Source: an uncultured bacterium (lineage in GTDB: Bacteria > Oederibacteriota > JAAXVQ01 > JAUVAV01). Taken from it: a DNA stretch of 64,000 nucleotides. The DNA lies in the NCBI GenBank assembly GCA_963710755.1, contig CAVQBK010000004.1:32001-96000 (forward strand), in the 5' to 3' direction. The first letter of the stretch is position 1. Each line of letters opens with the position of its first letter. The notes beneath the pieces are model-generated. The model did not search any database, had not been told where the DNA came from, and saw only the letters and a program-made list of their open reading frames with translations. The position numbers and the translations under genes were made by a program. Shown in pieces: positions 1 through 31,483 of the stretch.

Positions 1-3000
1 ATCATCCGGCTCTGAAAGCGGTGGCCGGGAATCAAGCCGGCGCCATCAAGGCCGGCCAACCCATTGCGGTGGACGGCGCCTTCGGCAAAGTTAATTTTGT
101 TGATAACGGCAACATCCTCCTTCAGGTCAATCATGATGGTAACGACAAGTTTACGGGCTACAGTATACGTGGTACCGACAAATACCATGGCATTGTTCTG
201 GCCGGCGCAGATAAAGTAGGAACCCATCTGCTCGCCCAAAATATTATAGTGCCCGTAGGAGTGAACCATCCTGCTTTGACAGCATCTGCTGGAGATCAAG
301 CCTCAGCTATCAGTCGGGGACAATTGGTCAGCGTTGTGGGCGCTAATGAAAGTGCTGTGGATTTTACCAATAAGGGCACCATCCTGATCCAGGTTAACCG
401 CGACGATAACGGCAAGGTTAGTGGCTGGGGACTTAGGGGTGTTGATCAGTATGGGGATACCATTGTCACTGCAATAGGTAAAGGCGGCCATTTGGAAATG
501 AAAAATGCTTTAATCCAGGTCGGCAGCCGTAATCCTTTATTGGCCCAAGCCGTTGGGAACAAGCAGGCCGGTGCTTTCCAAAAAGGCAACACAACAGTCA
601 ATCAAATGGATGGTGTGGACGGCCCGGTGGCTTTTGCCAAAGATCACCAGATTGTTATTCAAACCAGCCGCGATGATCAGGGTATTAAATACAGTGTTTT
701 AGCTCATTCGGTAAAAGATCCCAGCGTGATGCTTATTGCTGGCCTGGATGGCAACCAATCTCTGGGGTTATCAGCGGCTATTGGATCGCGCTCCAGTTTG
801 ATAGGCGTAAATGCGGCGAAAACCATTCTGGACAAATTTGACGAAAAGAGCCATACCGCTGTTGTGGATGGGCAGAACCTTGATTGCCAGAATGATGAGG
901 GCAACGTCGTGGTAAATATTGGCAAGAGCGATGGTGAAATCACTTACAGTGTCAGAACCACCTCTGCCCAAAATTCCAAGGTGACCTTCATCGTCGGTCA
1001 GAATGACAAAAAAGGTATTCAAATTACCGATGGTATGGGTTCCCAAAAAGATCTGGTGGCCCTCGGTGTTGCTGTGGCGGAATTCAAGCATGTGGATGCG
1101 GCCACGGGTACCACCGAAGCCGCCGTGATTGACGGGACTACGGGCAATAAACAGGTCTTTGAAGTGAGGGTGATTGGTGAGAACGAGCAGGTTCACGTAC
1201 GCTATGGCCGCACCAAGGACGGCGTATTGACCTACGGCTTGTTGGGAACATCCACCAAGTTTAAAGATGTCACGATCATGACCGGCATGGACAGCAAAGG
1301 CCGCAGCATGATGGTGCAAATGGCCAAAGGCAATCAAACAGATCTGGCGCTTTTGGGCATGCCCGTCAACGCACTGCTGACGGCCAATCAAAATGCACCG
1401 ATGGGCAAAGCTCGTCAAATTTTGGCTGATGCCAATCATGAGTATACCATTACGTTTGGTGAAGATGGGTCGCGTACCCTTAATGGTTATGCCCAAGTCT
1501 ACAGCCGGACGGACAAGGGTTATATGGGGCATCAAATCCAGGCTTTCGGAACCTTGGATAAAGACGGGAAATACACCTTTGGCGCCAAGGGAACAAACCG
1601 GGAATTGGAGGCCTTAGGGTTTGATCTCAAAGCGTTGGTGATGAAAAACCACAGTTTCGGCCGTGAAAATGCCTTGGTTTTTAACAGCCGGGTATTGACC
1701 ATGCTGGATACGGGCGATCACCAAATTCTTCAGGGCAGAACCATCAGCGGGGAAGAAGCTTCCTTGTCGTTGGACACGATTCATAACACTTTTTCCGCGT
1801 CCCGGACCATTACGCAAACCATCAACGGTCAGGAAGTGGCCATGCGGCTGGATAGAGATGAGCATGGCAGCATGGTAGTGACCATCAATGGACAACAGTT
1901 TGCCATGGCTGATGGATTAAAAATAAGTGCCGCTTCCGGGGACTATAACGGCATGATCCAGCTCGAAAGCGGCGACATGAAAAAATATATTACTTTACAA
2001 GGAGATGAAAAAACCGGGTTCATACAACGTTGGAATAACAAAATTTACGAGGCCGCCCATCAAATTGCCGCTGCTTGGAATGATAGAGTGAATAATGCAA
2101 ATTCAGGTCAATTTACATTTTTTGATAATTTAGCGGACAGTATGGCCTTTACCGGGGCTGCCTTCACAGCAGGAATAGCGATGCTGACCTCTCCCCTCAC
2201 AGGGGGATTAGATGCGGTTGCTGATAATTACTTGAAGGAACATGAGAATTGGGCAGCAGCAACAGCTTATGTGGCTTGTAAAACCGTTTCAGAACAAGCG
2301 CCCATCATTGGAGCCATACTCCTGGGACCGGCCGGTGGCACTGCTCTTATTGGTTCGGGAATATTGATGGAAATGAAGCCCGTCGTCAGCGGCGGCGGAC
2401 TTGGAGATTTTATTAAATCAGCCGGTTCATCGCTGCTGGTGACAGGTAATAATTTCTTTGTGCAACCGTTTATTATAGCCAAGGATGCCCTTGTCAATGT
2501 ATGGACCGGCCATGGCGAGGAAGCCTTGTCTTATTACGGACAAGCAGACCGTTATGTCCAACTGACCGGCGCTCTGGTACAAGTGGCGTTTGCTTTCACT
2601 ATGACCAGAAGTTATGGTAAAGCCTTGATTGATGGAACCACCATGCTGCGCTTCAGACTTTCTGAAGCGGGCGAAGCGTTTAAAAATACTGCAGGCAGCA
2701 GTGCTTTATTGGCAGCTGGTAAAGCCCTCTTCCAGGGTGTTTCTCCCGTCAATTTTTCATCAGAAGCGATGACGGCGGCCAAGGAAATTATGAAAAGCAA
2801 CCACACTTCATCTACGAAGTTTGAGGCCCTTAAGGAGTTAAGAGCCGGTAAAGATCCGGAAGCCGTGATAAAGGCAGTGGATGCCATTCAGAAGCCGCCA
2901 ACGATAATGAACAGAGTGGCCACTGCTTTGAAGCTTAATGAAGGCCCGGTGGCCAACGTCGTGGAAACGGCAGGGCGCACCGTGAGAACGGTTACCCGGG

Positions 3001-6000
3001 CGGTTGGCTCAAGCGTTGAAAAAGTGGTCAATGTCGTTAAGGCTGCCTTGGCACCTGTGGGTGATGGCATTGTCCATTTTGCCGCCAGCAGCAGGGACGT
3101 TGTCATCAATCAAGTCGTTAAAGTGGTTCAAGCAGTGGGAAAAGTCCAAGGTATAAGCGCGCTGGCCTCGGGCATTAAAACAGTAACTGCGGTAGTGAAT
3201 GGGTGGAGTGCGGCGCTCAGCAGCACTGCAACCCAGGTAAGCGTGGCCATTAAAGTATTCGCCATGAATGCGGCTTCCGGAATAAGCACAACCGCGGCTA
3301 ACTTAATGGCCAACTCCAACCCGGCGTTGAGCAAGATGTTATCCAATTTGTCCCAGCAATTGGAAAATGGCGCGGCAAAGATGCAGGAACAAAGCAAGCT
3401 GACCCTTGAATCCAAGACCGAAGGTCAAACCAGCCGAGCCGAAGCCGGCTTGGCGAAATCCTTTGAAGAGAAAATCACTGCAATTGAAAGCAATTTTGAA
3501 AAAGCTGGCACGATCTTTGAACTGTATGAACAAGGTGCAAAATTAAAATCCGCCATGAACGCTTATGGAAATTTCCTGGCCATGAGCGGTAATGCTGATC
3601 TGGTTCTAAATAAAGTACAGGCATTGACGGAGCAAGGCCACGGAGGCACAGCGCAAATTCTCGAAGGCGTGCTGCAAGTCCGCGCCGATATTGCCGGCAA
3701 AGTTATTGAAAGCATCAAAGGGACAGAAGCCGGCCATGCGGTTATTGCAGCCTTGGGCAAGAACATCGCTCAGAATGGGCCAATGGCGGCCGCCGTGCTG
3801 GCCAAGGAAGGCGTCTCGGAGGATATCGCCGGTGCCGTGGTCAAAGCAGCCTGTGCCAATCCCGGGAACACGGCGCAATTTGTAAAAGCCTTGACCCACA
3901 ATACGGACGCCATGGTTCAAGCCGTACGCGCAGCCGACCCGGTAAGCGCGGCCAGCATGGCTGATGCCGTATTTTCATCGGTTAAAGGCAGCACCAGAAC
4001 CACGGCGGCCATGAAACAGATGGCCAATGCCATGGCCAAGGATTCTGCGGTGGCCGGCAAGGTTGTTGATATTGCGGCCGCCGGTGACCGCGGGTTTATG
4101 CGGGAAAAAGTGATGGAGTTGTCCAAGGAAACCGCCCAATTGGAAAGCAATTTCCTCGGCGCCTTAGGCCAATCGCCCAAAGCCATGGCGGCGTTCATGC
4201 AGCAGGCAGCTCAAGGGCGTTACGGCCAGCACCGGGCGGAAGCCTTCACCAAGCAAGTGGCCAAAGATCCCCAAACCAGCCGTCAGATGGGCAAACTATT
4301 GGATTCCGCCAAAGCTAATGCGCAAGGCAGGTTGGTGAGTCCCCGCACGGCTGAGCTCTTCAGAAACACGATCGCCGATCAATTGGCCCGGAATCCGCGA
4401 AGCGAACCCATGCAAAACCTTTTAAAACAGTTTTCCGAATCAGGACAAAGGCAAATTTATAGGCAGTTGACCAATGATCTTGCCCGGGATCCGGTTAAAG
4501 CAGAGAATTTTAAAGACGCCGTGGTAAAAGATTTAAGAAAGGCCATGAAAGGCATAGGCGCGCCTAAGGTGGAACTTAATGCCAAAATAGAAAGACTGAC
4601 CGATCTGACACCCAAAGCCGAAGGAAATGTGAAAGCCGACGCTGCCCAAGGTCAGGGTCAAGGGAAAGGCCAGGCTGACGCCAATAACAGCACTGAACCC
4701 AACTTTGTCAACGAAGTGGTTGCAGCCTTAAAAACGGTTATTGACAACATGACAGGCAAAGCCAAAACCTTCAAGGAACCGGGTGCTTCAGGCTATAGGG
4801 CGCCATTCAGCCTGGCAGGAAGCAGAACGATGGAAGCTTTGCGAACCGATCCGCTGCAGGCTGCCTATGAATTCACCAAAACCATTTCCGGATTGCGGCT
4901 GGTGGAAGGCACGGCCAAGGCTATAGGCCAGCTTGGCAGTGGAACGGCCAAGCAATTCCGAGAAGCTTATTATAAAAATCAGCTCGAAGGATCGACGCAA
5001 GGATTACGTCAGGCTTTTGAAGCCAACAATAAAAGTTTGGAGACCCTGGATGCCCGCTTGGAGGCCATGGCTTTAAAGAATCTTCGTTCCCCGGGCGTTG
5101 ACAACCGTTTGTTTAACAAGCTTCAAAAAGGTATGGCCCAGCGGCAAGAGTTGAAAGCCCGGCAGGAACAGTTGTTAAAAGTGGCGGAGGGAAAAATTGA
5201 AGAAGCCACGTCAACCGTGGGGGAAATAGCAAGGTTAAAACTAAGCGCCCAGGAACTTCAAGCAGCCAATGAGGCAGGCCAGGCATATGATGCGGCGGTT
5301 AAAGCTCTGGAAAGCAAGGCTGAAAATTTTAAAACGATCGAACAAGCACAACGTCAAGTGGAAGAATCCGCGCTTGCTGAAAATGGCGGGCAGGCGCAAG
5401 CATTACCGGAAAAGGTGAAATCCCGGATCGATGCCTACCGGGTGTCTTTGGCGGAAGCCGCTTTTGAAGTGAATGCAGCCCGTGAGGAAGCACAAACCGA
5501 ATTAAATCAAATGTTGGCCAAGCCTGAGTTAGGCCAACGGCTGGGTGAACTAATGGTTCAAGAAAGCGTGGCCTCTTTGGGACGTCAAGCTGTTCAGGCC
5601 CAAGCACGGGTAAAAGGTAACTATGCCGAAGCTTACCGTGCGGCTGTGGCAAGGCCTGAAGAAGCGTTGACAAGACAAGCCAAACAAATTGGATCCCAGA
5701 TCGAAGGAGTAGAACGGCAAGCGCAACGCGCAGCCGGCCGGACCGAATTGAGAAGCCGGCAGCAGCAGGCGCGCCTTGAGAACCGGATGGCTTTGCAACG
5801 AGAATTGGCAGCCACCCAGGAACGTCTGGATACGCTTGACCCCACGAGCGAACAGGCTAAGGAACTCAAATCCCATCAAGACAGGCTGGAAACGCAGTTG
5901 GCGCGTCTTGATCGCGCCGACCAACGGGAGCTGCAAAGAGCCCGGCAAAAACAGCAATTGGAAAAGCGTGGGGCGCAATTGCAAACCCGGATCGCGAATA

Positions 6001-9000
6001 AGGATACGTCTCTTTCCCATCAAAGCCGACAGGCTACGCGGTTGATCGAGGTCAAAGCGCGGGAAGAGAAGAAGGCGCCTTTTGCCGAGGCGAGAAGCCG
6101 GCAGCAGCAGGCACGTCTTGAAAGCCGGCAGGCCCTGCAACATGAATTGGACGAAACCAAGAAACGTTTGACAATGCTTGACCCCTCCAGCCGCCAGGCC
6201 AGGGATCTCGAATCGCACCAATCCAGAATAGAAGCTCAGTTGGAGCGCCTTAATCGCGCCGACCAGCGGTATCTCCAAAGCGTCAAGCGAAACCAGCCAA
6301 TGGAAAACCGTTACAGAGAAGCTATTTATCAAGAATTGGCTGCACTGGAAGGTGCCAGGGCCCGGTTGCTGAAAAGAGCCGAGCAATTTGGCCAATTGAA
6401 GACCTTGGCCGAAACCTTGCTGTCCAAATCAGCGGCTGAATTGCAGAATCAGGATTTGTATGATTTCACGGCCAAGGTAATGGAACAACTTCCCATCAAG
6501 GATCAAACCGAATTGTTCCGGGCTGACAAGAACCATCATCTCGAAGTGATATCCCGCATGAGTTCCGAGGGCGCCCAGGCCTTGAGCCGGGCCTTGACCA
6601 AAACAGAAGCCCGGGCCTTGATGGATGCCATGCTGGAAATGGGCCGGGCTTACGACGAACAAGCCCAACAGCAATCAACGGCAATGGAACAAGGACGCTT
6701 GCGGGACATGGCCAAAACGTTTTACAGCAAAGCCGGCGATTTGTTGGCCGGCCGGCCGGCTAAGGAAATCATGCAATTAATCAATAACCCTGCCTTCAAA
6801 AAAGCCGCGGAATCAAGCAATGCCACTTCGGTTCAAGCGGCACTTATGTTGCATGGCAAACAACCTGTCTCAAGTAGAATGCTGCGCACCGTGGAATCCT
6901 TTGCCGATTACCTCCTGCAACAGCCGACCACCATGTCCTTTGATACGGTGTTGAAGAATTTTGGAGAATCCCGGTCCTGGTTCCAGCGGCTTCGCACTGA
7001 CAGCACGGAAGCCATGGTCAAAGCCTTGAAATTGGAGCCCCGAACCCTGGAGCAACAATTAACCGCACTGGATGAACTGGCTTCCGAACCGGCCAAAGCC
7101 TTTAAAAATCAACTTATGCAAGGCCGGACAGCGGAACACCAAGCCCAGTTGGAAAAAGCTGGGGCAGAAGTGGATAGGCTTAAAAGCGAGGTAGCCAGAA
7201 TTGAAAATGCCCGGCAAAAAGCGGTCGAAGAGAGAACCGCTTCGGAGGAAGCTTACCAGGAAACCTTGACTCAAACCAAGGCCGAACTGGCCCAGGCGGA
7301 AAGCAATTTGGAAGCCTTGAAGTCTAAAGAAGTGAAATTGGCTGACAGCAGCAGCGATCTGGCCAAGGCGCTCGAAGCTTTTAATGCCGAGCGGAGCAGC
7401 AGCGGTCAGGCCGTCTTAAGTGAAAAGGATATTTTACTTGAGAACCGGGATGAAGCGAGGGAAAACGCCATCAGTCAAGTCACCTCACAGGCTAGAATCA
7501 ACGCCCAAATGAAGCTGATGGACAACAAGGGCCGATTAAATGCTCTGCGTGCGCAATTAACGCAACTGGAAAAGGCCCAGGCATTTAAGCCCAGCCTGAG
7601 CAACCAGGTTCAGCAAAGCATTTTAAAATTTAGAATCAACAGGCTTAATCGCCAGGTTGTCAACGCTGAAAACCGCTTTACCAATTTTGCGGAATTGCCC
7701 CTGCCCAATAACTTGGAGGTACGCCGCTTAGCCAACACTTTTGCTCTGGAAACTAATCTCGATGTGGCATTGCAAATGGAAAAAATTCATAAACGTTTGC
7801 AAACTACGGCCGAAGCAGACCGGGCGGCCCTTCTGGAAAAAGAGGCAGCCATGACGCCTGAAGGTTTCAAAGAGTGTTGGCCCTATTATGAAAAAGTCTT
7901 GAATGAAGCAAGTAAAGATGCCATCAAAGACCTTAATGATGACAATCAAGCTTTTCGGCGTCAGCTCATGAGCGCTCTGCCCAAGGGAATCACCAATGGC
8001 CGGCAACTGTACGATGCCTTTAAAACCCTTCGCGAAGGTATAATCAAAAACGGGGACATTCAGGAAGGATCGATTCGTGATGCACGTCTCATACGCGTTT
8101 ACAGTGAAATTGCCTTTACCCGTGTAACTGGTTTCGATAACATCCGATTGGCCCAGAAAATAATGTTGAATTCCTTTTTCGGGCAACAAAACGTTGGGTT
8201 GGCTGCTGGCGGTGGTAAGACCAACATATTTATTATGATGCATATGCTTGGCATCATGAGTGGCGGAACCCTGCGCGGCGAAATTCTGGTTGATGATCCG
8301 GCAGCTATCGAAAAATACAAAACGGAAATGCAAAATACGGGGCTTAAACAGGGAGACTTGGCCGAAGCCTTGGGCTTGGAATTGGTCAATGGCAATGCCT
8401 TGCACAATGAAGGACGTTACCGGGAGCTGGAAGCAGCCTTGAACAGCTCCGACAAAATTGTGATCTTTGACCATATTACCCGTGCCCATTTAAGAAATGC
8501 CGAAGTCAGCAGCTCCAGTTTACGGCAGGCTTTGCAACAAAGCAACTATGTTGGGATTGATGAAGTTCATATGGCCGCGACTTCGCAAACGTCAGCGATT
8601 ATTGGCGGCGATATTGCCAAGCCTAGAGCGGCGTTGGTCCGGAAGGTAGATCAATTACTGAATGAACTGGGCTTCGAACAGTCAAATTTTAAAGCTCAAG
8701 TGGAAGCCGGGAAATTACCTCAATTGCGCAATGGATTTGAAGTGATCGACCACCGTGGTAAGGAACTGACCGATGATCAGATGGTGGAGTTCAACCGTAT
8801 GACTGGTAAAAAAATCATTTTGAGCGATGGGCAGATAAAACTTAATCTTGCAGCCCAGACGGCATTGAGAGGATTTACGGAGGGACAAATATCTTCTGTC
8901 CTGCGCACCCTTTATAGCAAGGTTGGAAAAGCCGGAGAATATATTTCCTATGCCACCCTAAACGGTAATATCTCGCCGGTCAATAGTCTGGGTAAGATTG

Positions 9001-13832: not shown

Positions 13833-13867
13833 ACATTATCATTGGTACTTGTGGTAAAGACAGTTTT

Positions 13868-13900
13868 AAAAGCCCGTCCTTCATTGGGACGGGCTTTTTT
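13868..13900 (+). terminator. Rho-independent terminator after giant protein 1
   Basis: aaaagcccgtcc-ttcattg-ggacgggc-tttttt hairpin plus U-tract. Confidence 0.9.
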
Positions 13901-14026
13901 ACTTTGGTGACAAGGCTAAGAGGAATCGATATAATTAGACTCTGTGGCGAAAAGGGCATTATGCCGGTAGATCTTGGTCGAGCGCGTGGGGTCGGCCCTA
14001 CTCAAGCAACGATTTGTTAGGATGAA

Positions 14027-14647
14027 TTGATGATGAGGATTTCCAGGCAATGGTGTTATCTTTTTGTAATCACAGCAAGTTTTGGTCTGGTGGGATTGAG
14101 CCATGCCCAAAATGATCAAGCCTGGATTAAAAAACACCTGAAAAATAAAACCTGGGAGTACCTGGCCAACCAAACCTCTTCCACGCTGGTCACTGCCCAA
14201 CGCTTGCTCCTACAGTTAAACCAAGCCAAGGATGTGGCTGCAAAAAAACGGCATCCAACCCGGCAGCTGAGCCATGGTGATCAGGAAACCTATCATTACA
14301 GCCGGTCCGGCCAAGAGGTATCGGTTTGGGTTACCGGGCCCGATCAAAAAATGATCGAAGAGCGAACCTATAGCGAGCAGCGTCTCGTCTCCATTCTATA
14401 TGCGGATGGCACCTTAAAAACATTTCAATATCCTCCGGAGCAAGGCGACCGTCAGTCCTCCTTAGCCTGCACCATTGTGGTCTATGCCGATGATCAGACC
14501 CGGTTGTTTCAATACGATGGGGAAGGCCAATTACGCCAGGCTTTTCAGGCAAACGGCGATTCTATACCCTTGGGCAATTTAATGGACTTTCATACGCTCA
14601 ACAATCTGGTGGACCCTGCCTGTCTTCGCCTGGGGGGCACTCCATGA
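14027..14647 (+). CDS. Secreted hypothetical protein with YD/RHS-like beta-hairpin repeats
   Basis: Signal-peptide-like N-terminus (…GLVGLSHA); YADGT, YADDQ, YDGEGQL motifs; overlaps next gene by ATGA. Confidence 0.7.
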   Translation: MMMRISRQWCYLFVITASFGLVGLSHAQNDQAWIKKHLKNKTWEYLANQTSSTLVTAQRLLLQLNQAKDVAAKKRHPTRQLSHGDQETYHYSRSGQEVSVWVTGPDQKMIEERTYSEQRLVSILYADGTLKTFQYPPEQGDRQSSLACTIVVYADDQTRLFQYDGEGQLRQAFQANGDSIPLGNLMDFHTLNNLVDPACLRLGGTP

Positions 14648-23300: not shown

Positions 23301-24753
23301 TCTAATTAATCAAGTTGAGGGTGTTACGGTAGAAGAAGAAGTAATTTCTGATAAAGAGTTTGAAAATTTATTTGATAAAGGAGGAGATTCCCCCGCCTCT
23401 CTCGGCTACTGGACTGCGATGGCCTTACGCAATACATGGAATTTTAAGTGGAGCGACCGGAGTATCAACCGCTTTGGCATGATTTGGGCTGTAGGAGAAG
23501 CAGCCATGCTGGCCGCTTTTGTGTCTTCCTCTACGCTCAGCCTTTCCGTCCTTTGGGCACTGGCCTTGGCCCATTTGCCGCTCATGATTATGGCCGGGGT
23601 GCGCGGTCCGCAACTATGGAAAAACTTGCGCGGCCAGTCCATCATCATTCTCGGTTATGGCGTTTTGTCCATCTTTGGATTACATGCCTGGCTTGTCGCC
23701 TGGGCCGGCGTGCATCTGCTGAAAGATTATCATGCCCTTTTTAATCCGCTGGCGCGAGCAGCAACCAATACCCGCCGATTGCTGAGTTATCTGCAAAAGC
23801 CCTTTGCTGTGCTGGTCATGATTACTGGAGCTTTGGCTCTGGCCGGCACGGTGACTTTGCTAACCTTGCAAACCATTACCGTATTGGCAGCCGCCACTTT
23901 GGCCGTGGTGGTGGCCGGGCTGATTACAGCAGGCCTATACCTTTATACTCATAGCCAAACGATCGTGCTTAGCGCCAAACACCCCGCGCCCTCCGCTGCT
24001 GAGCCATCATCCAATGCTATCTTGCAGCTCATGCGCAAGGAGCAATCCCTTGGCGTGACGCCACAGCCGGGCAGTGCCTTTAATTTTGCTGATAAGCTGG
24101 CGATCACCATGGGCCAAAGCCGTCTGGGGCGTTTCCTAATGAGGATGATCAGGCAGCCGGTGGGGATGCGTCTTTTCGAACTACTGTCTCAAAATAACCT
24201 TGGACGCCTCCTTAACACTGCCTTGGTAAGTGCGCTTTGGTCCGGCTTGGGCACCTTGCCCAATGGATTAATCAATGGCGATGAAGCCATGGCTTTTATC
24301 ACCAATGGGCTTAGCGCCACTGCTCCCGGCGCTTTCATTCGGCTGCGGTTACAGCACAATGAAGCCATCACCTCAACACAAGTTAGGGCTATTTTAACCA
24401 GCTCCGAAGTTGATACGGCCTTAATGGATCTTGAGCGTCAGTGGTCCAGGCCGCATGTGATGCAGCTGTTGAAACTATTGGTGAAATCCTTTGATCAACT
24501 GGATGCCAATGACACCACCAGCATTCGCCAATTGCTTCAGGTCATGAGCCAGATTCCAGGACCGCAGCAGCGCATTGGGTTGAGGCTTGGAAACCAGCCA
24601 GCCATGGAAATGATAGCCTTGCCCAAGATGGTTATCGAACAACCTAGCTTGTTCCTATTATTGAAGTCTTATTTCAATAATATTTATGACCAGAAGGGCC
24701 AAGCTATTGAAATAAGGCCCCGGCGGCTTAACAGCGCCGCAGGTGCAGCCTAA
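17365..24753 (+). CDS. Giant 2462-aa multidomain membrane protein: conserved N-terminal domain, TM bundle, kinase-fold module, HExxE motif, AT-rich module, TM bundle, shared C-terminal domain
   Basis: RBS aagggag; signal/anchor; IQDLHCHYEVQ…IGIEG…LVTGGFH; SSGALKHVY…QDFKPQNF…LIDMD; LLHEALEARGLDH; ends RRLNSAAGAA. Confidence 0.9.
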   Translation: MIRSHNQTRGLVKATALVVALTFVLPMVTFAFGPATYPADPVGAYGLTPFKINGQTIKISPQWGMITSSYQGHSDKTVVYIQDLHCHYEVQDHIYQMLKSLVERNHLKLIGIEGESKPVDVSPISTIARQNVRQEVGDYFIKRGRLTGPEYLASISGQPVVLAGIEKQQLYDYSKEKLTQFLTDENQGYVEDLRFVLEKLKAPLYSTELAKLDHMQAQFDGEQIPLENFVNYLLDEGDRLGVSFKAYSALNTYAVHRQMPYQGNVDYERLLDAARQYDQTVRDKLYTTQDQRRLDHYLKLVRIMESLINISATDQELTYYRGHKKEFSITTLFNFLDETCYRYAVNPNLDPNAVQLEKALAWAAEFYGAADQRSQAFIKNLLSQMDQRGQKLAVLVTGGFHAAQLEKALRSRDMTYLAIKPRLTRNDLPNPYFNVLKGRLSPIEQLIAQHENIFAPRSIFSSALYRRYIDTVKQIALAREAAGAAAPRQPAKELELKPAWSNPANNVYVLQFKNDKDVLVVIRNFEITNYPTMADAEKLDDHTMFQFVAREVWENPDYRAKILGSEKLARAAGPQSQPSELLDFLSGLSRYLGGISAPQSPLSKAWSAVRTGSSSAWATTKTWAAQGKELMFNPHVIMWLGSGLIMAGGVLGMIITSATLWPLIATVGAIMVMITSIAQMRNQSTPVMMRAAMGFTAMLVAGVLIFNLGLGSIAPLLAKTADLVPTLQATGILDLGWFALNYHNIIPNPEMFAAVGLLASVNTLAGMLARRLGWDQSGLVEEPVESAFYPDKDTLIEKALIYASSQFNYGTEHIRGDNTFKTDLEEIMAQTQNSRALQTFISNRADRLALAGMAYRNGRLSLTEDTPTGRLLDLARDFVEGENLAQAVLKGDDLKALKLGNSHLAQLISHILSGRKDQLFVLGAKDPSAPERLAPAYFTPTQLEAIKKLAAQYHVPMVLSGMNLNPLLGLKLEPAQVRTAYAGQMAMATAAGIGHLELPLVGTQYATMEKPLAKLAKKKGLSLEGMVPQEQATIWAENVSANMRALITGLVLDNPEKLKTFLDPVESKMAARENRAWSSRQGLQIQGIKKVSYVSSGALKHVYRAVVATEQGDLPLSLQFIQRAGALSIPGAPVDNMKSALTEARRFRELAGMLDKPRLARQLFSTQGLMASLPEEEQKRLGRLAHEENVDGLVLGYFTEGETLDALPDNRKAEGFRKSVVTLARTWQQTLTKERKKMRGLSTQDFKPQNFVYNAETNEVELIDMDLANYLTANMFLDNLQLYFKEVIKKQLFPGSETESNRLYAQVLWDGLLEAWGQEGFVNYLAAYVKDMKGSNKVKTEYKERLEAYLLAKQNQELLQLAVTANLITADKATPGALLAGGETSPSQMAMARERKPEGEEQATEPTELVMRSSSAQQKPAETLIAQAVEQQQGRAPPSEKTPLDQTATVSSQEKPTQGALKGAEGESLLKGILATSGLVLQPGQAIKEVAVRAARALGAYFQAKSLSPHLMDSDRWEKVKETLGQIKSNPKAVAIKAVSSTIDRLLEEKIKINIIPSAQDIKDNDNDLEQLGVFNLNGQVYMTQKVYDHVTNDEQLAAILLHEALEARGLDHGTVVKIIKLLGFENEDLVAAAGLGEQPILNILPSEDLENMIYQDTMKRYEVSDEAGHLGDKRIVLKNIYDPNITIILEKPESGEENLYLIKVVTPNAETEFSFQNRREWEMNRFGEIILKYLVTNSLPENFRNGVAATVSNFYRAEAARTHSPVRISILNPKIRTFVRRFFTNYYDATLDNDGVRPTKKWDIESNWEKFQNILWVYAKAKTTDEVARGILKDIIHLEVSAKSNWPLSNGAEEKLLQVFKDRLSEWIWINTHDARKVGLIKMILQLVFYMKEKGHSIDVEALISKFQAQLPYLVLSSDVDNLTNIVMNLNESVGTNIRLSDVNVFINQISQNSFFSGTNPTNERLVSSSFNRDNNPTLINQVEGVTVEEEVISDKEFENLFDKGGDSPASLGYWTAMALRNTWNFKWSDRSINRFGMIWAVGEAAMLAAFVSSSTLSLSVLWALALAHLPLMIMAGVRGPQLWKNLRGQSIIILGYGVLSIFGLHAWLVAWAGVHLLKDYHALFNPLARAATNTRRLLSYLQKPFAVLVMITGALALAGTVTLLTLQTITVLAAATLAVVVAGLITAGLYLYTHSQTIVLSAKHPAPSAAEPSSNAILQLMRKEQSLGVTPQPGSAFNFADKLAITMGQSRLGRFLMRMIRQPVGMRLFELLSQNNLGRLLNTALVSALWSGLGTLPNGLINGDEAMAFITNGLSATAPGAFIRLRLQHNEAITSTQVRAILTSSEVDTALMDLERQWSRPHVMQLLKLLVKSFDQLDANDTTSIRQLLQVMSQIPGPQQRIGLRLGNQPAMEMIALPKMVIEQPSLFLLLKSYFNNIYDQKGQAIEIRPRRLNSAAGAA

Positions 24754-24964
24754 ACGGTTTAAGTTTATTATATTCAATGTTTATTAAGGATTACGTTTGA
24801 AGCGATTTTCGAGACATTGAATTTTTAAAATCGGATTTTTTATTATGAAACAACACAGCTGGAAACATTCCTAAAAAACGTTTTAAAATGAAATGGCCAT
24901 TGGAAAATGGCCAAATTTAAAGCTATATTTTATAGACTATAGTTTGTGTTATGGAGGCTCAATC

Positions 24965-27900
24965 ATGTTATCGCAAGATCAATTCCGTCCAGCCAGTCTG
25001 GGATTATGGAAAAATAAAGCCATGGTGAAGTGGACCAAAGCCATTAGTCTGCTCATCACTCTGGCTTTTATTCTGCCCACGCTGGGTTGGACCTTTGACC
25101 AATCCCTGCTGGAGGAGCAGCTCTTTGTGCAAACCAAACTGGATGGCAAGGGCAGCAAAGCCTTGGCGGACCAGTTCAGGATCGCCCCTTATCTGGGTCA
25201 GCTGACGGAAGCCAGTTATCATACCGGCGGCAAGACGGTGGTGTTGATTCAGGACCTCCATTGTAATTATGAAATTCAGGAAAACATTCGCGGCATTCTC
25301 AATCATTTGGTGGACCGCCATCCTGAATTGAAACTGGTAGCCATTGAAGGGGCCAGCGGTCTTATCCCCACCTTGGATCTGGGCTTGATTCCCGACAGTC
25401 AGGCCAAAAGGGCTGTCACCGATTACTATGTGCACCAGGGCAAGCTGACCGGGGCGGATCACTTCACCATTTGCGATAACAAGCGGGTGGAACTTTATGG
25501 CGCCGAAAATCTTGAGTTGTATAACAAGAGCTTGGATTTGATCCGGTCTTTCAGCACTGAAGAAAATCGCGGCCTCCTGCTGGAAATGATGGACCAATTA
25601 CAGACACTTAAAGCATCTATTTATCACCCTGCCTTGGCGGCTTTTGACCGCAAGCATCTGGCTTTCCAGGAAGGCAAGTTGAGCGCTCACGATTATCGTG
25701 AAACGTTGCTCCAAACTGCCCAACAGGAAAAAATAAATCCCCTGGCCGGGCCCTTGGCCGTGATTGCCGGGAGGCGGCCGCTCAATTACCATGAGCAGCA
25801 AATTCAGGAAACTTATTTGGAAAAAGCCTTGTTTCAGAAGCTGGCCCAATCGCCTGCGGAAAAACAGATGCTGACCCTGAGTACTTATCTGGAAACAGCG
25901 GAACGCATCCTGACCATTGCTGCCGCGCCCAATGATTTGAGTGCTTATCAACAGGAGAGCCAGAGTCTGTCGTTTAAAGCCGTGAATGCTTATTTGAAAA
26001 AGAATCTCGGCTTTGACTATATTGATCTTGGCGATGATTTGGATACGCTCAATCAGGCTATGGCCAATGCCTTAAGCTTTTATGATTTGGCTCTGCAGCG
26101 TAATCAAACCCTTTCCCAACAAACTTTGAGCCGCCTTGCTGCCCGGCACGAACAAACGGCCGTACTCATCACCGGCGGGTTTCACACGGACAAAATTGCG
26201 GAACTTCTGAAAAGCAAAGGCCAGAGCGTGGTGGTGATTCGTCCCAACCTGACCAAAATGCAATACAGCAGCAATTACTATGACTTACTGCTCCATCCGG
26301 AACAAGAATCACCTTTTGAACAGGCTGTGGCGCAGGCGTACCGGCGTACCGTGGCCATAGGTGTAATGGATCAGCAGGTTAATATGAACTTTAAACAAGA
26401 ATTTTTTCGCATGTTGGATATAAGCAAAAGAGCAGCTCAGATGACTATAGGCCAAAGTGTCACTTTGGGCAGTGTGGTTTTAACCAAAGTGAGTCAATCG
26501 ATGGTGCAGATCAAATCAGCCTTGGGTTCTTTTTACATGAATTTGAAAAACCCAAGGGGTGCTAATACGATTGAAGTTGAAACTGAGAAACAAAGAGCGC
26601 AAGCTCAGCCGAAAAATTGGATTTTGCGGCTGGTGAAATCACCGTTAATGCAAGTATTTATTGCAGCCTTAACAGCCAGCTCCAGTGTGGCGGCAGAACC
26701 TATCCAAATAGTGATTAAAGTATCAGGTTTTGGCCCCATCCATTGGGTACTGGTTGGCCTGGCACTTTTCGTCGGCATCTATAAATTGCTATCCTTGCTT
26801 AACACTGCAAGAGGAATGGTCAGAGGATTAGTGGCATCGGGCATGATGTGGTCCACTTTTGCAGGAACGGCTTTAAGCGATTATATACAAACCGCGATGA
26901 GCGATTCATCACGGGGTAGTGATGGTTTTATAACGAACATTTCCCAATTGCTGAATAGAGGGGTGGCCCAAGCCCTTAATAGCATAGGCAATTTAATGAA
27001 AATTAAAAGGCACCTTAGTCAACCCGAGGATGAAGGCACTTTCGTAAAGATATCAAAATTTCTTAATGAACATGCGGGGCAAAGCGGAACGAAACTAATC
27101 TTTAATGGGACATTGACAGTCTTAGAGCAAACACCAACCATTCGTTGGGGGACGGTTGCAGCAAGGCAAGCAGCTTTGTTGGCGCAGTCGTCGGAAGCAT
27201 TATTTGGCATATCCGCCACCGAATTGGAACTGGAATTTGAGACCGCCCAGCTTAGGAAAAAACATGAAGCCGAACGGTTGGCGGAAATGCAGCTGGGCGA
27301 AAGGGTACCTCATGTTTGGAACGGCGACGGCAAGCATGTACAATATATAAGCGGTGCTGATATCGACGATATGCTTAAAATTTTTACAACTACTTTTGGG
27401 CCGGCTTTTGCCACGGTCATTCCTGTTGATACCTATGCCGAAGATCCGGAACGGCGGGACCCTAAAGTAAAAGACTTCGGTCCCGTTTCCTCAAGAACCA
27501 TTGATGGCATGACCTTGCAACATTGGGTTGAACGGATAGAAAGCGCATATGGCGCATCTTGGAGAGAAATAATTAGCAATCTTGACAATGAAGCATGGTT
27601 TAACAGCAGAAAAGGCACCAATGGGTTTAACCGCAGTACCATCAAATTTATTAGCCAAGCTTATAGTCAAAGTAGAAATCCGGCTACTGAATTCTTGATT
27701 TTACCCCGTGTGATTATCCGTCATCCTTATCTTGATCAAAATGAGGATCAAATTAACGCCAATATTCTTTACAGCTATTCGCCGCATAAAATATTTCAAA
27801 GATTGAGACAAATAAATGGAAAAATACCTTCGCTCTTGTCTGAAATAGTTGATAAAAAAGTCAGGGAAACCATTGCATGGAATTTAGACGAAATTCAAAA

Positions 27901-30900
27901 AATGGATGCAGCTCACCCTATTCGGCCTTCTTACGATCTTGCAAGCCAGGTTTTGGTTGATGCCATTCTTCATGAGATATTTCACACCATGTTTTTCCAT
28001 TTGACCAATGACCAATTGGTTCAGTTTAAAAACCTGTTGGAAGCGGCACCAAAAGGCAGGGTTTATTTTAAAAACTGGATTAAGGCGCTGGAAGGAATAC
28101 AATATGTAAGACTGGCAGACCACCAAGGGGATCCAAAGTATGCGAACCCATCTGCATTTACCTGGGATAAGGCTGAGACCCTTTGGCTTGCTGAAATGTT
28201 TTGTGATCTTGGTCCTATGGTCTTGATGCATCTGAATGACAAAAATCATGTTCATGAAACCGAATTAGGTGAAAAATTGACACCGCAATTGGAACAGTTT
28301 TTTACCAATGTTTTTGATACCTTAAAGTGGTTTAGCGGAGAGGATCGATTATTTATTTTTACATATAATCATTTATCAAGGAGCAAAGCTTACCAAAGCC
28401 GACTGATCAATGCTTCCTTATTAATCCCTATGCAGACAAATCCGCAAGGTGCATTGAACCAAAGGATGTCAATTCTGGCAGGTTTGTATAATGAAAAAAA
28501 AGAAGGCCTTATTGTTGGTACGCCAGTCAATTTGAGTGACAAGGTTCCAGAAGCAGAGGAGCCGGCTTCATTCTCTGCAGCCTTGCGAAGTGCTGAACAA
28601 CCATCAGCTTCTTTGCCAGAAGATAACGCTGCGTCCTTTATGTCTTTTGCGCAAAATATTTCAACTGCTCCTTCGACTGAAGAAAATACTGAGAGGGGTA
28701 CTGATTTTGAAGAAGATCCAACTTTAGCCCGGGCAATGGTTACTGGTCCACGGGTTCAACAATCAGCTTTAATATCCACAGACGCTCCAGTTCAACCAGA
28801 AGTATCGATGGGTGATGCTTTTATCTCAATAACTGAAGGTCAGGCGTCAGTAGTTAGCCATAGTACTATTGGTCAAACAGAATCACAGAATAAGCAAACT
28901 CAGCCAAACACACCTATATTTAATGGCGCTGTCACACCGTATGGCCCCTACGAACGGTTTGGCATCAGACCCAAGGACAACAATAATAATAATGAAATCA
29001 TTCCCGCCCCTGTACAAGAGGCCCTTATCGGCAATCCTGACTTGTTAAATGCCATTCTTGGCCAGCCACGGGTGGCTGATATCATCGGCCAGGCAAGGGA
29101 CTTACTGACCACTGTGCCTGAAGGACAACCTATCACCATAGGTCTTGACAGTCCAGCCTTGACGGCGTTGTTGCAAAAAACCATCAGTAGCTTGGGCCAA
29201 AGCAATCCTGCAATTTATGGCCGGCTGGCTTCCAGCGTTAAGATCGTCAACCTGCCAACAGCTGCGAATATAACACCCCAGACGTTTACTTCTTGGGCAG
29301 CCGGACCATCGATCACGGTGCTGACCAATCCCCCCACCAGCACCAGTGATTACGTCACGGTCAGGGTTAATGCCAACGGCCAGGTGGGTGTGGGGCATCA
29401 GATTTCTGCTATTCCCATACAGGCCATTAGTGGTTTGGAAGAAGCGGTTAAAAATAGTTTACTGGATCAACATCATCAAATTTTAAGCAACCTTCAAAAT
29501 AAACAAGAATTGAAAGATTATCTTCTGGTGAATTGGAAAGCAGTGGATTCTCAAAACGCCCAATTGTTGCAAAATTATGATCATCAATTCACGGTCACCG
29601 GATATCGGCAGCCAACGGCCGCAGAACAATCACAGTTGTTAATTCCATCCCTAGAAGCGGCACTGAAACCAGCCTTCAGTGCTGATCAGCAGGAAATTTT
29701 GGTTCAGATCAACTTGGCTGCGCTCAATCAAGTGCAGGCTGCAGTGGCCAAGCCGGACAATATCATTATGAATTTCGGTCCCCGTAATGCGATGGTCGCT
29801 CCTCAGAAAGAGTTAGGGTATAATTTGGAAACGGCCGTATTAACACAAGCCTTTGGCGCCAAAGGCACGGCTTTGATGCCGGCCGAGAAACAAGCGGCCA
29901 TAGATAAATACACTCAGGCTGTAGGACTGCAAATGAGCCCTGATCCTGTTGTACGCGCATTGCAGGATCAAGAGTTGGCTGACTTTATTCAACTACTGAA
30001 AGGCTTCTCAACTGTTGCTGTGGAAATGTCCCCGGCGCATGATCTTAATGGCTTGGAGAATGAAGCACGACAACCAGAGCTCATGCAAGACAAGATCGCC
30101 GAGATTCGCAAGGCCATAGCCGGCACTTATAGCCAAAAAGCTTCCGAGGCCTTGAGTGATAATGAGGTGGCTGATATCATCGGGCAATTAGCAATGATGG
30201 ATTTCAGAACGGTCTTAGGTCCTGTGACCTCGATGCTGGCGGCCTTGCAGCGCGGTGAAGGCCGTCCCTGGGAAGAACAACCATCTTTGTTTAGTGCTTC
30301 CAACCCGCTTGCTTATTTCAAAGGCGTTGGCCGGGCCCCGACGGCGCCGGGTGCTGTAGCAGATTTGGCTGTCAAAATTAAGGAGACAAAGCATAACGTT
30401 GCGAAAGGGATTTCTAGATTCTTTTCGAGTATTTTATTGGCCATTGTGGCTAGTGCGGTAATCAAGGACGCGATATTCGCGGCCATGAAGGCGCCACGTC
30501 AAGATGATGTGTCCTGGCTAAGCCGGTTCATCAGCTTCCTTGGCCATCCTGGCTTGCGACAATCTTTACTTCTCATGGCAGGCATTGTGGTAGGCAGAGC
30601 TGACGTTTGGGATCGGCTATCGCCTGTGATTAAGGCACAACTGGTGGATCTGCAAAAGCTGAGCAATTCAGGAAATGATTTTACGAAAATGGAAAAGAGT
30701 GAATTGGAACAATCCTATCCTTCCTTAAAATATGACCAGGCAAGTTTCAAACAACTTAATAATCGAATGCAACGTAATACGCTGTTTGGATTTGTTTTTT
30801 GGATGGTTAAACGTTTTCAGAAAGTTGACAAAAATAGTCTGGTCGGCCTTTATCCGGAAATGTTTGCGTTGCTTAGCACCGGTAACCAGATGGAAGATAT

Positions 30901-31483
30901 TTTATGGTATTATTCACCGGCTCAAACATTCAGTAATCGTGTCCAGGGTTTAACGGCCGATGTGGACCTAAATGGAAAGCCAGATAGTGGTATCGAGAAG
31001 CGTTTGGCTGAAAACCTGAGCCGCGGCCTGGATGAGGCAAGGAACGCATTGAATGATTTAACATCACAAATAGAACAAGCGGAGCCCGACAAACCCGTAC
31101 AGGGTGCTCTCTTAAGTCAAAAGCGGGATCTCTTATTCAGTATTTATCTAAACCGCATTTTGGAAAAACTGGGAGAACATAATTCGGTAGCCAACGTCAG
31201 ATTGCTGATCCGTTTGCTTTTAAAAGAGATGTCCCGCCCCGATGTTTCTGTGACGTATAAAGAAGGCATTTTGGAGCTTCTGAAGGTGATTAATCCTTTT
31301 GACCAGGCGGCTTATCAGATAAACTTAGGCAATAACATAACTGAACCTGTTATGTTGCCACTGGCCCTAACGGAAACAGCCTTGCGCGATTATTTACTGC
31401 TCTTCTTTGAGGTCTTTGATCAACAAGGGCAACCAATGATGCCCTTGCGCCGGATTGAATTGCGACATGGTGCTTCAGCCTAA
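24965..31483 (+). CDS. Giant ~2170-aa multidomain membrane protein, paralog of 17365..24753, with an HExxH zincin module
   Basis: ATG at 24965 follows GGAGG and is preferred over 24893; IQDLHCNYEIQ…VAIEG…LITGGFH; AILHEIFH…WLAEMF; ends RRIELRHGASA. Confidence 0.9.
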   Translation: MLSQDQFRPASLGLWKNKAMVKWTKAISLLITLAFILPTLGWTFDQSLLEEQLFVQTKLDGKGSKALADQFRIAPYLGQLTEASYHTGGKTVVLIQDLHCNYEIQENIRGILNHLVDRHPELKLVAIEGASGLIPTLDLGLIPDSQAKRAVTDYYVHQGKLTGADHFTICDNKRVELYGAENLELYNKSLDLIRSFSTEENRGLLLEMMDQLQTLKASIYHPALAAFDRKHLAFQEGKLSAHDYRETLLQTAQQEKINPLAGPLAVIAGRRPLNYHEQQIQETYLEKALFQKLAQSPAEKQMLTLSTYLETAERILTIAAAPNDLSAYQQESQSLSFKAVNAYLKKNLGFDYIDLGDDLDTLNQAMANALSFYDLALQRNQTLSQQTLSRLAARHEQTAVLITGGFHTDKIAELLKSKGQSVVVIRPNLTKMQYSSNYYDLLLHPEQESPFEQAVAQAYRRTVAIGVMDQQVNMNFKQEFFRMLDISKRAAQMTIGQSVTLGSVVLTKVSQSMVQIKSALGSFYMNLKNPRGANTIEVETEKQRAQAQPKNWILRLVKSPLMQVFIAALTASSSVAAEPIQIVIKVSGFGPIHWVLVGLALFVGIYKLLSLLNTARGMVRGLVASGMMWSTFAGTALSDYIQTAMSDSSRGSDGFITNISQLLNRGVAQALNSIGNLMKIKRHLSQPEDEGTFVKISKFLNEHAGQSGTKLIFNGTLTVLEQTPTIRWGTVAARQAALLAQSSEALFGISATELELEFETAQLRKKHEAERLAEMQLGERVPHVWNGDGKHVQYISGADIDDMLKIFTTTFGPAFATVIPVDTYAEDPERRDPKVKDFGPVSSRTIDGMTLQHWVERIESAYGASWREIISNLDNEAWFNSRKGTNGFNRSTIKFISQAYSQSRNPATEFLILPRVIIRHPYLDQNEDQINANILYSYSPHKIFQRLRQINGKIPSLLSEIVDKKVRETIAWNLDEIQKMDAAHPIRPSYDLASQVLVDAILHEIFHTMFFHLTNDQLVQFKNLLEAAPKGRVYFKNWIKALEGIQYVRLADHQGDPKYANPSAFTWDKAETLWLAEMFCDLGPMVLMHLNDKNHVHETELGEKLTPQLEQFFTNVFDTLKWFSGEDRLFIFTYNHLSRSKAYQSRLINASLLIPMQTNPQGALNQRMSILAGLYNEKKEGLIVGTPVNLSDKVPEAEEPASFSAALRSAEQPSASLPEDNAASFMSFAQNISTAPSTEENTERGTDFEEDPTLARAMVTGPRVQQSALISTDAPVQPEVSMGDAFISITEGQASVVSHSTIGQTESQNKQTQPNTPIFNGAVTPYGPYERFGIRPKDNNNNNEIIPAPVQEALIGNPDLLNAILGQPRVADIIGQARDLLTTVPEGQPITIGLDSPALTALLQKTISSLGQSNPAIYGRLASSVKIVNLPTAANITPQTFTSWAAGPSITVLTNPPTSTSDYVTVRVNANGQVGVGHQISAIPIQAISGLEEAVKNSLLDQHHQILSNLQNKQELKDYLLVNWKAVDSQNAQLLQNYDHQFTVTGYRQPTAAEQSQLLIPSLEAALKPAFSADQQEILVQINLAALNQVQAAVAKPDNIIMNFGPRNAMVAPQKELGYNLETAVLTQAFGAKGTALMPAEKQAAIDKYTQAVGLQMSPDPVVRALQDQELADFIQLLKGFSTVAVEMSPAHDLNGLENEARQPELMQDKIAEIRKAIAGTYSQKASEALSDNEVADIIGQLAMMDFRTVLGPVTSMLAALQRGEGRPWEEQPSLFSASNPLAYFKGVGRAPTAPGAVADLAVKIKETKHNVAKGISRFFSSILLAIVASAVIKDAIFAAMKAPRQDDVSWLSRFISFLGHPGLRQSLLLMAGIVVGRADVWDRLSPVIKAQLVDLQKLSNSGNDFTKMEKSELEQSYPSLKYDQASFKQLNNRMQRNTLFGFVFWMVKRFQKVDKNSLVGLYPEMFALLSTGNQMEDILWYYSPAQTFSNRVQGLTADVDLNGKPDSGIEKRLAENLSRGLDEARNALNDLTSQIEQAEPDKPVQGALLSQKRDLLFSIYLNRILEKLGEHNSVANVRLLIRLLLKEMSRPDVSVTYKEGILELLKVINPFDQAAYQINLGNNITEPVMLPLALTETALRDYLLLFFEVFDQQGQPMMPLRRIELRHGASA

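Follow-up and report, generated by a model that had tools for sequence, protein, structure and literature searches.

Three giant reading frames lying one after another on the same strand of a contig from an uncultured bacterium raise the question of whether their products belong to one protein family and, if so, what such proteins do and where in the cell they do it. The stretch analyzed, referred to below as the window, is 64,000 nucleotides long and corresponds to positions 32001-96000 of contig C4 (GenBank CAVQBK010000004.1) of source genome G000, a 3.44-Mb assembly of 13 contigs with a G+C content of ~50%. According to the open reading frame (ORF) list of the window, the three frames occupy positions 3..13832, 17365..24753 and 24893..31483, all on the plus strand. 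An initial annotation, made from the sequence alone, had described three co-oriented giants, which is correct except that the first, ORF1, is cut by the window edge. The window holds its 3' 4,609 codons (1..13832, plus strand); the open frame begins outside, at C4:21437, runs to C4:45829 and encodes ~8,123 amino acids (aa) counted from the first ATG. P0002 (2,462 aa) and P0003 (2,196 aa from the first ATG; 2,172 aa in the record version, which starts at M25, window 24965) are complete. The best explanation, to which we assign a probability of roughly 0.55, is that P0002 and P0003 are canonical members, and ORF1 a headless relative, of a very large family of giant, modular proteins of the envelope that is spread across lineages. 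This figure blends separate estimates for the family assignment and anatomy, for the hydrolase nature of the N-terminal head domain and for the mechanism proposed below; taken by themselves, the family assignment and anatomy are very likely correct.

The constant head and tail

The N-terminal domains of P0002 and P0003 are 28% identical over 450 aa (BLASTP, E=2e-45), as the initial annotation had noticed. This domain, the head, covers aa 45-445 of P0002 (window 17497..18699, plus strand) and aa 80-484 of P0003 (25130..26344, plus strand). A search of the genome with the P0002 head revealed 31 head-bearing ORFs (E from 2e-101 to 3e-41), with the head N-terminal in all of them. Together they comprise 80,801 residues, or 7.0% of the genome, a share that rises to 8.3% once ORF1 and the three 3' halves of split genes are added; the head is present in 26 of the 53 ORFs of at least 1,500 aa. 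The earlier claim thus stands that the giants are paralogues whose ends are constant and whose middles vary; there are 31 paralogues, and their modules are shuffled. The three split genes (C3:409593-423663, C13:366379-383045 and C4:146561-155430) are each divided into two frames, the 5' one with the head and the 3' one with the tail, and could reflect frameshifts, sequencing errors or programmed events.

The family extends far beyond this genome. A profile of 22 heads matched 9,705 cluster representatives (clusters at 50% identity) at E<=1e-3, 8,377 at 1e-10 and 6,172 at 1e-30. Among the best 150 of the 9,705, the head match begins within ~45 residues of the N-terminus with one exception (residue 103). 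Named relatives that carry the head come from FCPU426, Firestonebacteria, Goldiibacteriota, Omnitrophica, Elusimicrobia and Endomicrobia, and the closest genomes are labelled candidate division FCPU426, Candidatus Firestonebacteria or Candidatus Goldiibacteriota. In 41 sampled genomes, which are non-independent samples, the head was found in 15: all 15 of the window's order (7-45 matches each) and none of the 26 others of the phylum. The host of the window is therefore an FCPU426/Firestonebacteria-type organism whose 3.4-Mb genome is not obviously that of a reduced symbiont, unlike the small, probably host-dependent bacteria to which giants of this kind had been compared at first.

An AlphaFold model of the head was obtained from 22 paralogues (mean pLDDT 82, pTM 0.73) and used in two structure searches. 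Foldseek ranks 1-4 were all members of the erythromycin-esterase family: EreC 6xcs (E=1.6e-3, probability 1.0), 6xcq, 3b55 and 2rad. A wide all-against-all search with VIA-align, which is independent of Foldseek, ranked EreC (Z 8.6), ChaN (8.4) and HopBA1 (8.4) highest, with 2qgm (8.1) and 2rad (7.6) also in the top seven. PMC6254334 lists EreC-, ChaN- and HopBA1-type structures as members of the TIKI superfamily and describes a catalytic 2His/2Glu motif, represented by E3900-x-H3902, E3930 and H4030 in RRSP and by His85-Glu113 in Bcr135. The P0002 head contains the corresponding [D/E]-x-H ... E ... H constellation, namely D83-x-H85, E113 and H401 in a GGxH motif, together with R373. Its H85 and E113 are 28 residues apart, the His-to-Glu spacing given there for RRSP and Bcr135.

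In an alignment of 251 heads from several phyla, H85 and E113 are each conserved in 250 of 250 aligned sequences, D83 in 246 of 250, R373 in 242 of 244 and GGxH in 243 of 243. Fold and motif both place the head beside the TIKI superfamily (Tiki, TraB/PrgY, GumN, ChaN, EreA-C, Bcr135/136, RRSP, HopBA1). It differs from known members in a large helical insert that parts its two halves, seen in both alignment and model, in a near-invariant Cys after the first His (195 of 251 heads), in being unmatched by curated families at the sequence level, and in always forming the N-terminal module of giant modular proteins. We assign the head to the TIKI-type hydrolases because the two structure-search methods and the motif agree, despite moderate scores; this assignment, based on the predicted model, is likely. 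The head is probably catalytically active. Tiki, PrgY and ChaN act outside the cytoplasmic membrane.

The signal-like helix that precedes the head (window 17365..17480 in P0002) ends in P-x(3)-[S/T]-W-A-F-[D/E], with the Pro present in 22 of 22 paralogues and in 160 of 251 heads. The W-A-F motif is more conserved than ordinary signal peptides and could be a dedicated cleavage or recognition site.

At the other end of the chain the similarity is much shorter than first thought. The initial annotation had described a C-terminal segment common to all three giants and had proposed an export signal for the family. What they have in common is a tail of ~12 residues, made up of an R-rich patch followed by small-[S/A]-Ala-COOH (RLKGAGSAA, RRLNSAAGAA and RHGASA). 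The tails are RHQRLKGAGSAA-COOH in ORF1 (13794..13829), RPRRLNSAAGAA-COOH in P0002 (24715..24750) and LRRIELRHGASA-COOH in P0003 (31445..31480), all on the plus strand. BLASTP revealed no similarity of ORF1 to either P0002 or P0003. The C-terminal match between P0002 and P0003 is weak (E=5e-4 over 130 aa) and is lost in an all-against-all comparison of 28 C-termini. Hidden Markov models (HMMs) of the last 45, 120 and 200 aa were trained on the 27 other tail-bearing ORFs of at least 600 aa in the genome, with the window proteins left out; P0002 scored E=7.7, and ORF1 and P0003 gave no match. Since profile HMMs and all-against-all BLAST failed, we replaced the shared C-terminal domain by a tail motif, and in place of an export-signal segment there is a 12-residue tag.

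The tail is strongly associated with the head. The pattern [SAGTQN][SAG]A terminates 19 of the 31 head-bearing ORFs, compared to 24 of 2,357 other ORFs of at least 200 aa (Fisher p=9e-28). Of the homologues listed from other lineages (119), the last two residues are [S/A]A in 79 and the last is A in 87. The forms seen there are ...L-x-[S/G/A]-A-A or ...E-x-V-L-R-A-L, the latter setting apart a subgroup from Omnitrophica; the basic patch is particular to the window's lineage. The tail of P0033, a diverged orthologue of P0003, is identical to that of P0003.

Since the tail must stand at the very end of the chain, its position suggests that some receptor reads it as a free C-terminus. The tmRNA gene of the organism (C2:14814-15168, minus strand) specifies the tag peptide GEQEFALAA, and because this tag ends in ...ALAA the tails of the giants resemble the end of a degradation tag. 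ClpX, FtsH and the periplasmic tail-specific protease read such C-terminal ends. With known C-terminal tags (ssrA ...LAA, those of PDZ-type tail-specific proteases and peroxisomal PTS1) the giants share a short motif at the extreme C-terminus and an end of small residues and Ala-Ala; the preceding lineage-specific basic patch sets them apart. An attractive alternative is that the exported head itself may read the tail.

No head was found in ORF1 with an HMM of all 31 heads. Its product consists of a signal-like N-terminus, a long low-complexity or beta-rich part, a coiled coil, a SecA-like region, a cluster of C-terminal membrane helices (residues 7398-7916, window 11652..13208, plus strand) and the tail; self-BLAST revealed no internal repeats at E<=1e-6. 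Three orthologues of 6,942-7,669 aa were identified, all of which have signal-like N-termini and keep the tail (...KLTGSSA and ...KTTGAAA). Two of them were compared with ORF1 and matched its C-terminal ~2,200-2,500 aa at 31% identity. Because ORF1 and its orthologues combine a signal-like N-terminus with the family tail, ORF1 is classified as a headless relative of the family, by tail and predicted layout and not by detectable homology.

A different gene precedes the P0002-position gene in two other genomes: L113 16107..19001 (G008) and L114 3..2822 (G002), whose products end in ...LNLPGSAA or ...INLPGGAV. They have no similarity to P0124, P0002 or P0003 and may represent another tail-bearing class at the place of ORF1. 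The upstream part of ORF1 itself has weak RHS and MORN matches (Pfam, 600-aa pieces).

Mosaic bodies between the ends

Between head and tail the giants are mosaics. P0002 (17365..24753) consists of a signal helix, the TIKI-like head, a membrane bundle (aa 636-769, window 19270..19671), a variable body, a second membrane bundle (aa 2048-2195, window 23506..23949), a C-terminal region and the tail. P0003 (24893..31483) has the same layout with single-helix membrane passages and a hypervariable middle at aa 601-1400 (window 26693..29092; all features on the plus strand). Hydropathy analysis confirms that bundles of hydrophobic helices separate the modules, as had been proposed.

Comparison with related genomes reveals how uneven the conservation is. 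P0004 matches P0002 collinearly, at 44% identity over 1,675 residues and again at the C-terminus, and P0005 carries the kinase-like module at a position different from that in P0002. P0003 and P0033 are 63-95% identical in the head, 17-38% at aa 601-1400 and 96-100% at aa 1401-2196. We used the conserved clpB gene 3' of P0003 (31822..34410, plus strand) as a baseline for divergence. In G001, a genome of the same genus, clpB is 82% identical at the DNA level; two segments of P0002 are 96% and 91% identical as DNA, and the P0002 head is 49% identical as protein and 71% as DNA. The P0003 head is 82% identical in this genome and the C-terminal half of P0003 32%. The 96%-identical segment corresponds to window 23426..24070, at the second helix cluster of P0002, and looks like a recent exchange between lineages.

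The locus 5' of clpB was further inspected in three genomes of two other genera, where ClpB is 67-72% identical. The gene at the P0002 position encodes 1,124, 1,144 and 3,312 aa in the three relatives. Conservation extends to the head (40-45%), to the first module (31-35%) and to ~200 aa at the C-terminus (22-26%); the kinase-like and mini-zincin region of P0002 is unmatched in all three. The gene at the P0003 position encodes 2,216-2,324 aa, of which the head (38-39%) is kept, as is the C-terminal ~350 aa in two of three (23-25%), with nothing detectable in between. All eight family genes seen at these loci or next to them have kept the tail, seven with an AA or SA end and one with the variant AV. 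Heads and tails that are kept, together with unlike middles and the mosaic pattern of identity, indicate recombination. This points to family genes that recombine, with ends kept and middles swapped, lost or diverged past recognition. The initial annotation had named conserved, syntenic middles as grounds against its reading; here the locus is syntenic across relatives and the middles are not conserved.

The same comparison bears on the question of whether the giant frames are an artefact of chimeric assembly or decayed pseudogenes read as proteins. The assembly is in 13 contigs, and several family members are split into two frames, both of which would fit such an origin. Two public runs that contain the stretch, from soil and wetland metagenomes, do so as 160-600-base contigs at low depth, which is neutral as evidence; no RNA runs with the stretch are listed. 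However, the frames stay open over 2,196 to ~8,123 codons, independent assemblies contain collinear orthologues of full length (P0004 for P0002, P0033 for P0003 and P0256-P0258 for ORF1), gene order is retained in four other genomes and the catalytic residues of the head are invariant. We regard an artefact as extremely improbable.

The modules that make up the bodies are hard to recognize by sequence. Pfam detected nothing above noise in the three giants, either as whole proteins (E<=0.01) or as 41 overlapping 600-aa pieces (E<=0.05), and only two sub-threshold matches in seven orthologues and relatives. The SecA_DEAD-like ATPase region of ORF1 (window 7980..9992, plus strand), with its GGGKT and DEVH motifs, remains a lead: in a language-model atlas it scored 0.93 with 191 of 256 features, and 10 of the 10 best named matches were SecA families, but no Pfam or PDB sequence match was found. 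The same holds for the kinase fold that had been proposed for P0002 (aa 1040-1420, window 20482..21624, plus strand). Its D-x-K-P-x-N ... D-x-D catalytic loop aligned to a Ser/Thr kinase in a PDB sequence search (E=0.4) and the atlas returned kinase-like families (0.94-0.96); the 144-163 shared features are below the guide value of 170, and Pfam gave no match. The homologous module of P0005 has a weak Choline_kinase match (E=0.0013, below cut-off).

The HExxE sequence noted earlier in P0002 turned out to belong to a ~200-residue module that recurs in the family, with three copies at ~750-aa spacing in P0238 and P0024. The canonical HExxH zinc-binding motif does not occur in the P0002 module (aa 1511-1640, window 21895..22284, plus strand); the motif is H-E-x-L-E-x5-H, invariant in 9 of 9 aligned copies. 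With the predicted model of the module (pLDDT 74), the top seven hits of the wide structure search were all zinc metallopeptidases (Z 6.3-7.3): selecase, AsaP1, abylysin, deuterolysin, ZMPSTE24, Ste24 and BlaR1. Selecase was the best match (Z 7.3, 104 of 109 residues aligned). The top Foldseek rows were 3c37, selecase, Ste24, BepA and BlaR1, with moderate scores (best E=0.019). By its predicted structure the module is a mini-zincin fold with a variant motif. Its best structural matches are thus the minigluzincins (selecase, abylysin, jannalysin) and M48/M56 cores, from which it differs in having H-E-x-L-E-x5-H instead of HExxH plus Glu, in the moderate scores of the match and in being embedded and repeated within a giant family.

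For P0003, an HExxH zincin had been suggested. The motif (HEIFHTMFFH, window 27971..28000) is kept as HEIAH(x4)H against HEIFH(x4)H in the diverged orthologue P0033, where the region is ~35% identical, but the region has no Pfam or PDB match, and hhalign did not relate it to the P0002 module. When the P0003 middle was used as query, the sole homologue recovered was P0003 itself. The idea that the family has its own processing domain is plausible in view of the TIKI-type fold with its intact motif and of the P0002 mini-zincin.

In relatives, the bodies are more readily identified. They include PPDK, hexokinase, adenylate and cytidylate kinases, PGI, PGM, glutamate dehydrogenase, radical SAM, DegT aminotransferase, dehydroquinate synthase, response regulator, HTH_8, SecA-like and ClpB-like domains, that is, mostly ordinary metabolic enzymes.

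The initial annotation had likened the giants to polymorphic toxins and MARTX proteins: secreted giants whose enzymatic middles would be delivered to a host or prey cell, with the SecA-like domain as a private translocation motor. The likeness is real as far as conserved ends, exchangeable enzymatic modules, recombination with mosaic identity among close relatives and a possible built-in processing peptidase are concerned. There are many paralogues per genome, and the TIKI fold is also found in the MARTX effector RRSP and the type III effector HopBA1. However, the variability is central and the C-terminus is a conserved tail instead of a variable toxin tip. The gaps after P0002 (140 nt, to P0003) and after P0003 (339 nt, to clpB) are too small for a downstream immunity gene. 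RTX repeats, CPD, an Rhs core, PAAR and domains linked to type I, V or VI secretion systems were not detected in the giants by Pfam, which led us to reject the RTX/MARTX and Rhs readings, and linked secretion-system genes were not detected either. The cargo of relatives is mainly housekeeping metabolism, and no host or prey is known for this lineage, whose genome measures 3.4 Mb. Delivery of polymorphic effectors is, on balance, unlikely, and use against a host or prey is no more than conceivable. The family is polymorphic in the manner of a surface or interaction system, yet it is not a polymorphic-toxin or MARTX system as these are defined.

Compartment and possible export

Topology was evaluated from hydropathy and charge counting. 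The N-terminal helix is preceded by basic residues and followed by acidic W-A-F-[D/E]. By our reading of the usual charge rule this arrangement leaves the N-terminus in the cytoplasm, and export of the head is to be expected. The simplest layout is that of P0003, in which a single helix stands on either side of a 1,200-residue body; judged by the flanking charges, the body would be cytoplasmic, and head and tail would both be periplasmic. In 25 of 211 stored homologues there is no hydrophobic segment past the head. P0104 consists of a signal peptide, the head, HTH_8, a SecA-like domain and a ...AAAA end, with no helix past the head. Taken at face value, homologues without a post-head helix put cytoplasm-type domains outside.

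The giants are also poor in cysteine. ORF1 contains 5 cysteines in 8,123 residues (0.06%), P0002 2 in 2,462 (0.08%) and P0003 4 in 2,196 (0.18%), compared to 0.93% in all ORFs of at least 200 aa; the median for the family is 0.34%, against 0.80% in other ORFs of at least 300 aa (p=8e-8). Such scarcity of cysteine is commonly seen in polypeptides that pass through an outer membrane or reside in an oxidising compartment. The signal-like N-termini, the cysteine depletion and the relatives without a membrane helix past the head make it plausible that the chain, or at least some of it, is exported. To this extent the earlier claim of exported proteins is supported; for body and tail, the counts that bear on compartment are split.

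Of the 27 further headless ORFs of at least 1,500 aa in the genome, the longest has 6,830 codons and lies at a contig end. Nine of the 27 have a cysteine content of at most 0.25%, a level shared by the 3' half of a split family gene and by ORF1. This suggests that there are other classes of exported giants.

From these elements a mechanism can be sketched, which we put forward tentatively and hold to be somewhat less than an even bet. The N-terminus would carry the head over the cytoplasmic membrane via the Sec route. There the head, as the constant working part, would be an active hydrolase, most likely a peptidase, that either processes the family polypeptides or acts on a common envelope substrate. 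The C-terminal tag would serve as an address, recognized at the free C-terminus by a receptor. The cysteine-poor body, made of interchangeable modules set between membrane helices (kinase-like, mini-zincin, HExxH region and, in ORF1, SecA-like ATPase), would largely leave the cytoplasm or be threaded through the envelope.

Several findings weigh against the envelope-family explanation and its mechanism. The head sequence has no Pfam match in P0002 and P0003, whole or in pieces, a profile of 22 heads found nothing relevant among PDB sequences, and the fold matches are moderate (Z 8.4-8.6, TM-score ~0.2, Foldseek E 1.6e-3). The strict tail is missing in 12 of the 31 head-bearing ORFs, some of which are split or cut by a contig end and five of which are variants with a V or MA end. 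In the all-against-all BLAST the 28 C-termini formed small clusters only, none with a window protein, so the regions before the tail are non-homologous, and no receptor for the tail was found. Crude counts over 22 paralogues are divided: 13 have an even and 9 an odd number of helices, and for the charge bias at the last helix the two sides stand at 10 and 8. Three relatives carry an ATP-binding PPDK domain no more than 140 aa from the tail, and no helix separates the two. Finally, cargo of relatives that needs ATP, cofactors or DNA argues for a cytoplasmic site of those modules.

The last points lead to a different arrangement, in which the giants are enzyme scaffolds tethered to the inner membrane. 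The head alone would reach the periplasm and serve there as a sensor or envelope hydrolase; the enzymes would stay and act in the cytoplasm of the cell itself, and the ...AA tail would be an ssrA-like mark for an AAA+ protease or unfoldase (ClpXP, FtsH) that serves turnover or quality control. The cargo is cytoplasmic in type and dependent on ATP or cofactors, helix bundles lie on both sides of the body, the simple positive-inside reading of P0003 places the body in the cytoplasm, the PPDK domains adjoin the tail without an intervening helix, and the tmRNA tag of the organism ends in ...FALAA. The conserved neighbour clpB may be added. Yet the same reading of P0003 puts the tail in the periplasm, beyond the reach of ClpXP. 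Cysteine depletion runs along the whole chain, enzyme-like modules included, 25 of 211 relatives lack any helix past the exported head, and fast mosaic divergence is unusual in housekeeping scaffolds. A built-in degradation mark on ~25 very costly proteins would also need a special explanation. We consider the scaffold arrangement doubtful, to the same degree as the delivery of effectors. The latter gains from two of these observations: cysteine depletion is usual for chains threaded unfolded through an outer membrane, and relatives with a signal peptide and no further helix carry ATP-dependent enzymes that would idle in the periplasm.

Other secreted proteins of the organism carry a different C-terminal label. 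Type IX-style sorting domains (FlgD_ig, CHU_C, Por_Secre_tail) are found in S8 subtilases at window 34682..36268 and 40852..42531 and in two proteins at L102 3260..6073 and 7765..8880. From these sequences the organism seems to use a tag resembling that of the type IX secretion system (T9SS) for ordinary secreted proteins, distinct from the tail of the giants. A search of the giants for Por_Secre_tail or CHU_C (Pfam, whole proteins and 600-aa pieces) was negative, and we rejected the reading of the giants as T9SS cargo. That type IX-style domains label other secreted proteins and are absent from the giants also speaks against their delivery as effectors.

Neighbouring genes, related giants and meaning

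The interval between ORF1 and P0002 holds two overlapping genes that encode proteins with signal peptides, at 14027..14647 (206 aa) and 14644..17181 (845 aa), both on the plus strand. Their products have weak YD/RHS-like repeats (RHS_repeat, E=0.0011, under the curated cut-off). A counterpart of the 845-aa gene lies 5' of the P0002 orthologue of G001 (58% identity); its conservation in G005 is weaker. On the 5' side of ORF1 there are genes for OmpA-, Lnt- and type IX-tagged proteins, which indicate that the organism has two membranes. On the 3' side, clpB is followed by housekeeping genes and by the two subtilases with type IX-style C-terminal domains.

The closest parallel is offered by the giant proteins of Omnitrophota (West-Roberts et al. 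2023, bioRxiv 10.1101/2023.11.21.568195; Nielsen and Lui 2026, bioRxiv 10.64898/2026.06.07.730766). The portions of these reports consulted describe signal peptides with many helices and strings of unrelated enzymes, divergent SecA_DEAD-like domains, many sequence-unique proteins and suspected self-processing. The giants of the window likewise combine a signal peptide or membrane helices with strings of enzyme modules. They differ in size, since at 2.2-8.1 thousand amino acids (kaa) they are below the 10-kaa and 30-kaa thresholds of those studies (the latter that of West-Roberts et al.), and in origin, the lineage of the window being of FCPU426/Firestonebacteria type and not of phylum Omnitrophota. 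Neither the conserved head nor the C-terminal tail is described in those portions of the two reports. We found no description of a head-plus-tail family in the literature, with supplements, which possibly contain domain catalogues, outside the scope of the search.

That several uncultured bacterial phyla possess giant modular membrane proteins is striking and has yet to be explained. One catalytically intact hydrolase head and a C-terminal tag are common to thousands of these proteins (9,705 clusters), and the family reaches past Omnitrophota and Elusimicrobiota. In the lineage of the window it makes up 7% of a 3.4-Mb genome and has been reshaped by recombination among close relatives. Head and tail provide two small conserved handles on a protein class that is otherwise too large and too diverse to study. 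If it is true that cytoplasm-type enzymes are exported, this would imply a new export or sorting route.

A more specific proposal, which we rate as a long shot, is that the head and the free ...Ala-Ala end are two halves of one undescribed sorting or processing route in FCPU426/Firestonebacteria, Omnitrophota and Elusimicrobiota. The head would then be a peptidase or transpeptidase that recognizes family tails in cis or in trans, and ORF1 would be a pure substrate. Docking, trimming or joining would assemble or release strings of cysteine-poor, cytoplasm-type enzymes outside the cytoplasmic membrane. If true, this would be a new means of bringing entire enzymes into the envelope or past it, and recombination would have diversified it in response to phages, competitors or partner cells.

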